A DNA stretch of 64,000 nt, taken from assembly GCF_048403405.1 (NCBI RefSeq), contig NZ_CP183129.1. One strand, given 5' to 3'. Position 1 is the first letter of the stretch. Every line of letters starts with the position of its first letter. The notes beneath the pieces were generated by a model, which was not told where the DNA came from, ran no database searches, and was given only the letters and a program-made list of their open reading frames with translations. Positions 40,584 to 42,774 of the stretch are shown here, piece after piece. Origin of the DNA: Escherichia coli (GTDB lineage: Bacteria; Pseudomonadota; Gammaproteobacteria; Enterobacterales; Enterobacteriaceae). The position numbers and the translations under genes are program-made.

Positions 40584-42774
40584 ATGTTTGTGGAGCATAA
40601 CCTGATAAAAAATATCAAGATATTCACACTAGCGTTTACGCTCACCGTGGTACTTATTCAGCTATCCCGTTTTATTTCGCCACTTGCCATTATCCATTCC
40701 AGTTATATCTTTCTGGCGTGGATGCCACTGTGCGTAATGCTGTCAATCTTGTTTATCTTTGGCTGGCGCGGTGTCGTTCCCGTTTTATGCGGGATGTTTT
40801 GCACCAATCTGTGGAACTTTCATCTCTCTTTTTTACAGACCGCGGTCATGCTCGGCAGCCAGACGTTTGTTGTGTTGTGTGCCTGCGCAATATTACGCTG
40901 GCAGCTGGGGACGCGTTGGCGTTATGGATTGACCAGCCGATATGTCTGGCAACGTCTTTTCTGGCTTGGTTTGGTGACGCCGATCGGCATCAAATGCAGC
41001 ATGTATCTTGTGGGGAGCTTTTTTGATTTCCCGCTAAAGATATCCACCTTTTTCGGCGATGCGGATGCCATTTTCACAGTCGTTGATTTACTAAGCCTTT
41101 TCACCGCTGTGCTGATTTACAACATGCTTTTCTACTATCTCACTCGCATGATTGTAAGTCCCCACTTTGCGCAGATATTGTGGCGCAGGGATATCGCTCC
41201 GTCGTTGAGCAAAGAGAAACGCGCATTTACCTTAAGCTGGCTGGCAGCTCTTAGCGTGCTGCTACTTCTGATGTGCACACCGTATGAGAATGACTTTATT
41301 GCCGGTTACCTGGTACCTGTTTTCTTTATCATCTTTACCCTCGGTGTCGGTAAGCTTCGCTATCCGTTTTTAAATCTCACCTGGGCTGTTTCAACGCTTT
41401 GCCTGCTGAATTACAACCAGAACTTTTTGCAAGGGGTACTAACCGAATATTCGCTGGCATTTATTCTCGCGGTGCTGATTTCCTTTAGCGTTTGCCTGCT
41501 CTATATGGTGCGCATTTATCATCGCAGTGAATGGCTTAATCGCCGCTGGCATTTGCAGGCGCTGACCGATCCGTTAACGCTCCTACCCAACTTTCGTGCG
41601 TTAGAACAAGCGCCGGAGCAAGAGGCGGGCAAGAGTTTTTGCTGCCTGCGCATTGATAATCTTGAGTTTATGAGTCGTCATTACGGCTTAATGATGCGCG
41701 TTCACTGTATCCGATCAATTTACCGTACGCTGCTGCCGTTGATGCAGGAAAACGAAAAGTTGTATCAATTGCCGGGTAGTGAACTGCTGTTAGTACTGAG
41801 TGGACCGGAAACGGAAGGGCGACTCCAGCATATGGTTAACATCCTGAATAGTCGGCAAATTCACTGGAACAATACCGGGCTGGATATGGGCTATGGTGCT
41901 GCCTGGGGGGCGTTTTGATGGAAATCAGGAAACCCTGCAACCCTTGTTGGGGCAGTTAAGCTGGCTGGCGGAGCAATCCTGCGCACATCATCATGTGCTG
42001 GCGCTGGATAGCAGAGAGGAGATGGTTTCCGGGCAGACCACTAAACAGGTGCTATTGCTGAATACCATTCGTACGGCGTTAGATCAGGGTGATTTGCTGC
42101 TCTACGCCCAGCCAATTCGCAACAAAGAGGGTGAAGGTTATGATGAGATCCTCGCGCGACTGAAATATGACGGCGGCATTATGACCCCGGATAAGTTTCT
42201 GCCCCTTATTGCTCAGTTTAACCTTAGCGCGCGTTTTGATTTGCAAGTGCTGGAATCCCTGTTGAAGTGGCTGGCAACACATCCTTGCGACAAAAAAGGC
42301 CCGCGCTTTTCAGTCAATTTAATGCCGCTCACGCTGCTGCAAAAGAATATTGCCGGGCGGATTATTCGTCTGTTTAAGCGTTATCACATCTCCCCGCAGG
42401 CGGTCATTCTTGAGATCACCGAGGAGCAGGCGTTTTCTAACGCAGAAAGCAGCATGTACAACATCGAGCAACTGCATAAGTTTGGTTTCCGGATTGCGAT
42501 TGATGACTTTGGCACCGGTTATGCCAACTACGAACGGTTAAAGCGTTTGCAGGCTGATATCATCAAAATTGATGGCGTCTTTGTGAAAGATATCGTCACG
42601 AATACGCTGGATGCGATGATTGTGAGATCAATTACCGATCTGGCGAAAGCGAAGTCATTGAGTGTGGTCGCGGAGTTTGTCGAGACGCAACAGCAGCAGG
42701 CGCTATTGCATAAGCTCGGGGTGCAATATCTGCAAGGGTATTTGATTGGTCGCCCGCAGCCATTAGCTGATTAA
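40584..42774 (+). pseudogene. pdeA: pdeA (yfeA) c-di-GMP phosphodiesterase, split by a frameshift in a G6 run at 41906-41911
   Basis: Two overlapping ORFs (40524..41918 and 41893..42774) together cover the membrane/degenerate-GGDEF part and the EAL domain. Confidence 0.7.

Follow-up and report, generated by a model that had tools for sequence, protein, structure and literature searches.

The pdeA (yfeA) gene in the 64,000-nt stretch of Escherichia coli DNA analysed here (the window) is split in two by one extra G in a short G run. A genuine, spontaneous slippage insertion that left a split pseudogene is the explanation we prefer, with a probability of about 0.5. According to this explanation, replication slippage would have added one G to a run of five (G5) at codons 441-443, and the resulting run of six (G6) would turn the gene for a c-di-GMP phosphodiesterase of the type MASE1-GGDEF(degenerate)-EAL into a split pseudogene. 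Translation from the ATG at 40584 would end after 442 native residues followed by Ala-Phe. A membrane-anchored sensor part would be made without the catalytic EAL domain, and the EAL domain would survive only as an overlapping ORF in the +1 frame with no obvious ribosome-binding site.

The window was identified as E. coli chromosome by its near-identity to annotated genomes. Compared with these genomes, its gene order reads eut–cys–pts–ligA–gltX–(IS609 remnant)–yfeD–yfeC–alaX/alaW–pdeA–nupC–mntH–glk–ypdABC–lpxP. The split gene occupies the position of the pdeA orthologue, flanked by the alaX/alaW tRNAs and nupC in the same order as in the annotated genomes. The name pdeA, which a sequence-only reading of the DNA had proposed, is borne out by this synteny and by a DNA sequence equal to that of annotated relatives except for the extra G. 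The features of the locus are listed below.

40186..40376, plus strand: two tRNA-Ala(GGC) genes, alaX/alaW, directly upstream of pdeA; synteny anchor
40584..41918, plus strand: 5' fragment of pdeA, 444 aa (442 native residues plus Ala-Phe, then TGA); start taken from the annotation of relatives
41893..42774, plus strand: 3' fragment of pdeA, a 293-aa ORF from ATG 41893 in the +1 frame
41905..41910, plus strand: G6 run (ancestral G5) carrying the +1 insertion that shifts the pdeA frame; from sequence and genome comparison
42778..42817, no strand assigned: G+C-rich hairpin with an 18-bp stem and T-runs on both sides, between the convergent genes pdeA and nupC; from a consensus scan only

The last of these is likely a bidirectional terminator, as predicted by the consensus scan only.

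The frameshift junction in pdeA reads gctgcctGGGGGGcgttttga and contains six Gs. The sequence-only reading had counted the Gs correctly and placed them at 41906-41911; the run lies one base further to the left, at 41905-41910. A Dcm site, CCTGG at 41902-41906, includes the first two Gs of the run. In its ancestral G5 form, the run is the longest G/C run of pdeA, and the other G/C runs of the gene are at most 4 nt long.

Both ORFs described earlier, 40524..41918 (464 aa) and 41893..42774 (293 aa), are present, with an overlap of 26 nt. The frame of the upstream ORF stands and its start at 40524 does not. Since relatives are annotated from ATG 40584, the upstream product is 444 aa long and not 464 aa. 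The in-frame ATG at 40524 sits 20 codons before the relatives' start, and the intervening stretch 40524-40583 overlaps the region just past the terminator-like hairpin of alaW (40384-40407). This N-terminal extension is probably not translated.

When one G was removed in silico, the two ORFs merged into a single 729-aa ORF, just as had been expected from one fewer G, and the repaired product was identical to WP_001309635.1 of strain TUM14771. Pfam placed MASE1 at residues 16-315 (1e-65), a GGDEF-like domain at 326-423, and EAL at 493-724 (2e-59) of this protein. The GGDEF match scored under the Pfam gathering score, which marks the domain as degenerate. The MASE1–GGDEFdeg–EAL architecture has been reported for PdeA and PdeF (PMC6510439). 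Intact E. coli PdeA (YfeA) and its paralogue PdeF (YfgF) are phosphodiesterases of this same build, and the gene in the window matches PdeA after removal of one G. Unlike intact PdeA, the gene as written is unable to yield the three-domain protein. The expected order of domains (MASE1, degenerate GGDEF, and EAL) is kept but spread over two ORFs, and in place of an uninterrupted frame of ~729 codons there is a break after codon 442 (Gly442). The 5' fragment keeps MASE1 (16-315) together with the greater part of the degenerate GGDEF-like domain (326-420), and the 3' ORF contains the complete EAL domain at its residues 57-288. The EAL-coding sequence is unchanged with respect to relatives. Because the frame is broken at codon 442/443, the interruption falls within the distal part of the degenerate GGDEF domain and precedes EAL. 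The split point given in the sequence-only reading was thus right in lying upstream of EAL, but it is not a clean linker.

The presence of a whole EAL domain in the 293-aa ORF is also what would be expected if this ORF were translated on its own. This alternative takes the frameshift as real but supposes that it does not make a null allele; it is a sub-case of the genuine mutation and compatible with it. Its outcome would be a free, unregulated EAL phosphodiesterase together with an orphan MASE1 membrane protein. Candidate starts are ATG 41893 or GTG 41896, by re-initiation overlapping the upstream stop, and ATG 42022 behind GAGAGGAG. Translational coupling can occur where a start and a stop overlap in this way, here by 26 nt. 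In addition, native PdeA is reported to undergo cleavage between its domains in vivo, with C-terminal pieces as products (Sarenko et al. 2017, PMC5635695; PMC6510439), so a free EAL fragment is conceivable. By contrast, no properly spaced Shine-Dalgarno-like sequence precedes ATG 41893, and the AGGAG before ATG 42022 abuts the start with no spacer. A promoter scan of the junction region found no promoter-like site upstream of either candidate EAL start. The only plus-strand promoter-like match inside the distal gene, at 42116, lies downstream of both candidate starts, and the total count of such matches was at the level of shuffled sequence. We consider separate translation unlikely. For the split pseudogene, we infer that the EAL ORF is poorly expressed; because the EAL domain is encoded only in an ORF without an obvious ribosome-binding site, PdeA activity would probably be lost or greatly reduced.

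The length of the G run was then compared across 5426 complete RefSeq E. coli genomes as the population sample. Probes of 48–50 nt with 22-nt flanks were searched by megablast with a 28-nt word, which forced each seed to span the G run. The G5 probe with identical flanks was found in 5342 of the 5426 genomes, and the G4 probe gave two exact matches. The G6 probe, a 50-mer that seeds only on G6, found none in the 5426. In the six genomes nearest to the window, the run was G5 throughout, and a 2501-nt pdeA query aligned over 2500 bases of each record with a 1-nt gap. In TUM14771, MS 69-1, and TUM1226, this gap in the G run was the sole difference from the window inside pdeA. The comparison with related strains that the sequence-only reading had called for therefore confirms its +1 G frameshift, as the relatives have G5. 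The possibility that G6 is the ancestral state was rejected, given G5 in 5342 genomes. These results indicate that, with G5 nearly fixed and G6 absent from the 5426 genomes, the window represents a departure from the norm and not a chance pattern of ORFs. The run differs in length from the population consensus within a conserved ORF and leads to a premature stop, as in a pseudogene formed by slippage.

The sequence-only reading had correctly framed the sixth G as either a real slippage mutation or a homopolymer sequencing error. In the latter case, the true state of the strain would be G5 with an uninterrupted 729-aa pdeA, and the sixth G would be a residual long-read homopolymer error, possibly dependent on methylation context. 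We regard this as a serious alternative, with a probability somewhat short of even odds; the weights of the real and the artefactual readings were set by judgement and not calculated from allele counts. The change is a single-base insertion in a G run abutting a Dcm site (CCTGGGGG), and single-base indels in G/C homopolymers are the typical residual error of long-read-based assemblies. The assembly seems to be based on long reads, given that the window is continuous through IS4321, IS609, and tRNA repeats. A single error of this type in 64 kb would fit a quality of about Q48-50. Furthermore, the absence of G6 from the 5426 complete genomes corresponds to a frequency of the order of 1e-4 at most, a value that plausible per-site error rates could match. 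However, a systematic error at this run would be expected to appear among these genomes, which are mostly long-read, and none shows G6.

The quality of the surrounding sequence was assessed by aligning the whole window to TUM14771, MS 69-1, and TUM1226, over ~62.7 kb of aligned sequence. Bases 1–21000 were identical to those of MS 69-1. Only the extra G, two C>T SNPs, and one IS4321 insertion were private to the window with respect to all three relatives. These variants, apart from the G, and the mobile element remnant next to them are as follows.

31672, in yfeH on the minus strand: private C>T, YfeH V293M
56778, in ypdA on the minus strand: private C>T, YpdA E541K
38171-39496, in yfeD: IS4321, IS110 family, 1326 bp, absent from TUM14771, MS 69-1, and TUM1226
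~36205-37846, between gltX and yfeD: IS609 remnant with a tnpA pseudogene (internal stop) and an apparently intact TnpB/InsQ gene (RNA-guided endonuclease)

The relatives carry two to five private SNPs each, a level similar to that of the window. With private SNPs and an IS insertion at the relatives' level, a private indel would be no anomaly. The window contains 248 homopolymers of at least 5 nt, 57 of them of at least 6 nt, and the pdeA run is the only one that differs in length. None of the other 247 shows a discrepancy, and these include the 56 others of at least 6 nt, where long-read errors should concentrate; no other indel was found in the 64 kb. The profile of the window is not that of an assembly ridden with homopolymer errors, and the lack of any other homopolymer discrepancy argues against an error-prone assembly as the source of the sixth G.

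The second C>T, at 56778, also lies in a Dcm motif. It removes the first C of a CCAGG site that, in the relatives, follows a neighbouring Dcm site by 2 nt (CCTGGTTCCAGG). In favor of the artefact, methylation errors in Oxford Nanopore (ONT) data usually take the form of C/T or A/G swaps close to modified bases (PMC11610573). Against a methylation error at the G run, the read accuracy at CCWGG in E. coli has been reported at ~99% with current R10.4.1 SUP models, like that at other sites (PMC11610603). CCWGG motifs cover 1.2% of the bases of the window, and two of its three small private variants touch one, a count based on n=3 and on a motif noticed post hoc. Among the SNPs private to the relatives, none of seven was within 100 nt of a Dcm site. 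Such a distribution could be a signature of methylation-sensitive basecalling. The T allele at 56778 occurs in 1 of the 5426 complete E. coli genomes, and the exact YpdA E541K protein is recorded only in divergent lineages whose DNA is 96-98% identical. For the exact YfeH V293M protein, there was no record in a collection of 15 billion proteins.

Other differences in the alignments concerned repeats and mobile elements. The identical IS4321 insertion with its flanks is present in 171 of the 5426 complete E. coli genomes, in other lineages. IS4321 is usually described as targeting the inverted repeats of the Tn21 family; its distribution suggests that yfeD may be a preferred chromosomal target site for the element. 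The IS609 remnant is common to the nearest genomes and is absent from other strains with G6 in pdeA, e.g., GCA_900448445.1. In cysT, TUM14771 is without one CTG of the CTGCTGCTG repeat at 18706-18708, and the window and MS 69-1 have it; this polymorphism in repeat length amounts to 3 nt and keeps the frame. The differences between TUM1226 and the window are confined to two dense patches, at 34299-34337 (a tRNA-Val/Lys spacer) and 36829-37898 (the IS609 region). These patches look like gene conversion or recombination between repeated copies.

We also searched public sequence collections for the same allele in other strains. The exact 444-aa and 293-aa products were already public, as STF83624.1 (444 aa) and as STF83623.1 and STK37794.1 (293 aa). 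G6 with identical flanks was found in at least 13 other public contigs from NCBI assemblies, Logan SRA assemblies, and one ENA metagenome. An exact 41-mer scan for the G6 allele in JGI metagenome contigs gave no match. The other G6 loci are 5–39 SNPs away from the window within pdeA, and comparison of pdeA SNPs and flanks resolves about nine G6 backgrounds including the window (about eight besides it). One G6 clone appears in three datasets, 100% identical over 5.3–5.6 kb (GCA_905398745.1, GCA_003327865.1, and Logan SRR11103386), and one of these, GCA_003327865.1 (strain E393), was sequenced with Illumina HiSeq only (PMC6049849). Two further groups have G6 in at least two datasets each (loci L010/L011 and L012/L013/L018). 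The G6 alleles of GCA_900448445.1 (STF83624.1 and STF83623.1), GCA_900449875.1, and GCA_003327865.1 share with the window the same run, flanks, 444/293-aa split, and synteny. They differ from it in that the other strains' alleles stand on other backgrounds, without the IS609 and IS4321 context, and none of these strains is that of the window.

Part of this material leans toward the artefact, as G6 is also present in two NCTC-type long-contig assemblies (UGAI01 and UGDR01) and in JAOWNY. The latter (strain ECA89) was assembled from ONT data with Flye and left unpolished (PMC10019233). Frameshifts are abundant in the flanking genes of JAOWNY, and its G6 is uninformative as to whether the allele is real. 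However, G6 has been demonstrated in Illumina-only data and in multi-dataset clones on several backgrounds, indicating a real, heritable allele in several lineages. Recurrence of the extra G on independent backgrounds, including Illumina data, makes a real event at this site entirely plausible, and the G6 of the window needs no artefact to account for it. That the copy in the window is itself biological rather than a consensus error is what we infer, at about even odds. As a known gene altered by a known mechanism, with the same allele already deposited from other strains, the window allele is an ordinary one. A published description of a pdeA/yfeA frameshift was not found in a literature search whose coverage apparently did not extend to the Povolotsky & Hengge genome comparison.

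The same site is also altered in other ways. The G4 (-1) allele, present on 23 contigs, encodes a 457-aa product with an out-of-frame tail of 15 residues, VLMEIRKPCNPCWGS. In E. coli A1.S1.160, one of the two complete genomes with G4, the same homopolymer of the same gene is affected and the EAL domain is likewise cut off, but the slip is opposite in direction. RefSeq labels this pdeA as a 'frameshifted' pseudogene. In the other complete G4 genome, FDAARGOS_1288, the allele is on a 198-kb record that is listed as a plasmid but is probably a piece of chromosome assigned wrongly. Further truncations of PdeA cluster close to the run. Shigella flexneri has a 440-aa PdeA (EGK21759.1, 'MASE1 family protein') that stops at codon 441 and contains only MASE1 and the degenerate GGDEF domain. 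This break differs from that of the window: judging from the protein end ...GYGAA, it seems to stem from a nonsense mutation, W441*, and not from a frameshift. The 440-aa form is fixed in a lineage and occurs on 46 contigs. EAL-only ORF calls from pdeA were found on hundreds of contigs. Judged from such sequence records, pdeA is evidently frequently inactivated in nature, and its G run is a low-frequency, recurrent slippage hotspot.

The occurrence of both +1 and -1 tract-length alleles in E. coli would also fit a contingency switch. Alternatively, a +1 ribosome shift on G-GGG-G or a slip of RNA polymerase could give full-length PdeA from the gene as written. For the ribosome shift, a +1 slip of tRNA-Gly from GGG (41907-09) to GGG (41908-10) would leave the pairing perfect and give back the native ...WGRFDG. 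However, the near-fixation of G5 speaks against such a switch. Counts of 5342 for G5, none for G6, and two for G4 in the 5426 genomes point to mutation-selection balance and not to switching. Known contingency loci and transcriptional slippage sites have much longer tracts than that of pdeA. A phase-variable contingency locus was rejected, the tract being short and free of high-frequency polymorphism, with G5 in all six nearest genomes. Also, the A site of the putative shift site holds neither a stop nor a rare codon, and the stop lies two codons downstream of the slippery GGG-G. The shifted arrangement is not conserved, and orthologues are in frame; a programmed +1 frameshift like that of prfB was rejected on these grounds. 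From these comparisons, programmed recoding or phase variation at the G run would be extremely improbable and appears effectively refuted.

The Dcm site adjoining the G run suggests a link to Vsr short-patch repair, by which the run (C-5mC-TGG-GGG) would be a context-driven indel hotspot. In very-short-patch repair of deaminated 5mC, Vsr would nick the strand 5' of the T. DNA polymerase I would then resynthesise through the G run, and each repair would be a chance of +/-1 slippage. The recurrent loss of PdeA in unrelated lineages of E. coli and Shigella would in that case reflect a local mutational bias, to which relaxed or positive selection for losing PdeA may add. The variant at 56778 would be a misincorporation in a Vsr repair patch. 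We consider the proposal quite improbable.

For the genuine slippage insertion, the interest of the finding is mild and lies in homoplasy at a tract with only five Gs and in the juxtaposition with a Dcm site. If the insertion is real, the strain lacks one of the ~13 c-di-GMP phosphodiesterases of E. coli. No strong phenotype is known for PdeA, and natural strains often carry a disrupted gene, so the loss probably matters little. Until the extra G is confirmed in reads, the locus is best annotated as a frameshifted pseudogene of pdeA. Codons 441-443 are a recurrent +/-1 site to be heeded when the c-di-GMP gene repertoires of E. coli are compared, and the recurrence on many backgrounds illustrates, in a modest way, homoplasy at a short G run.
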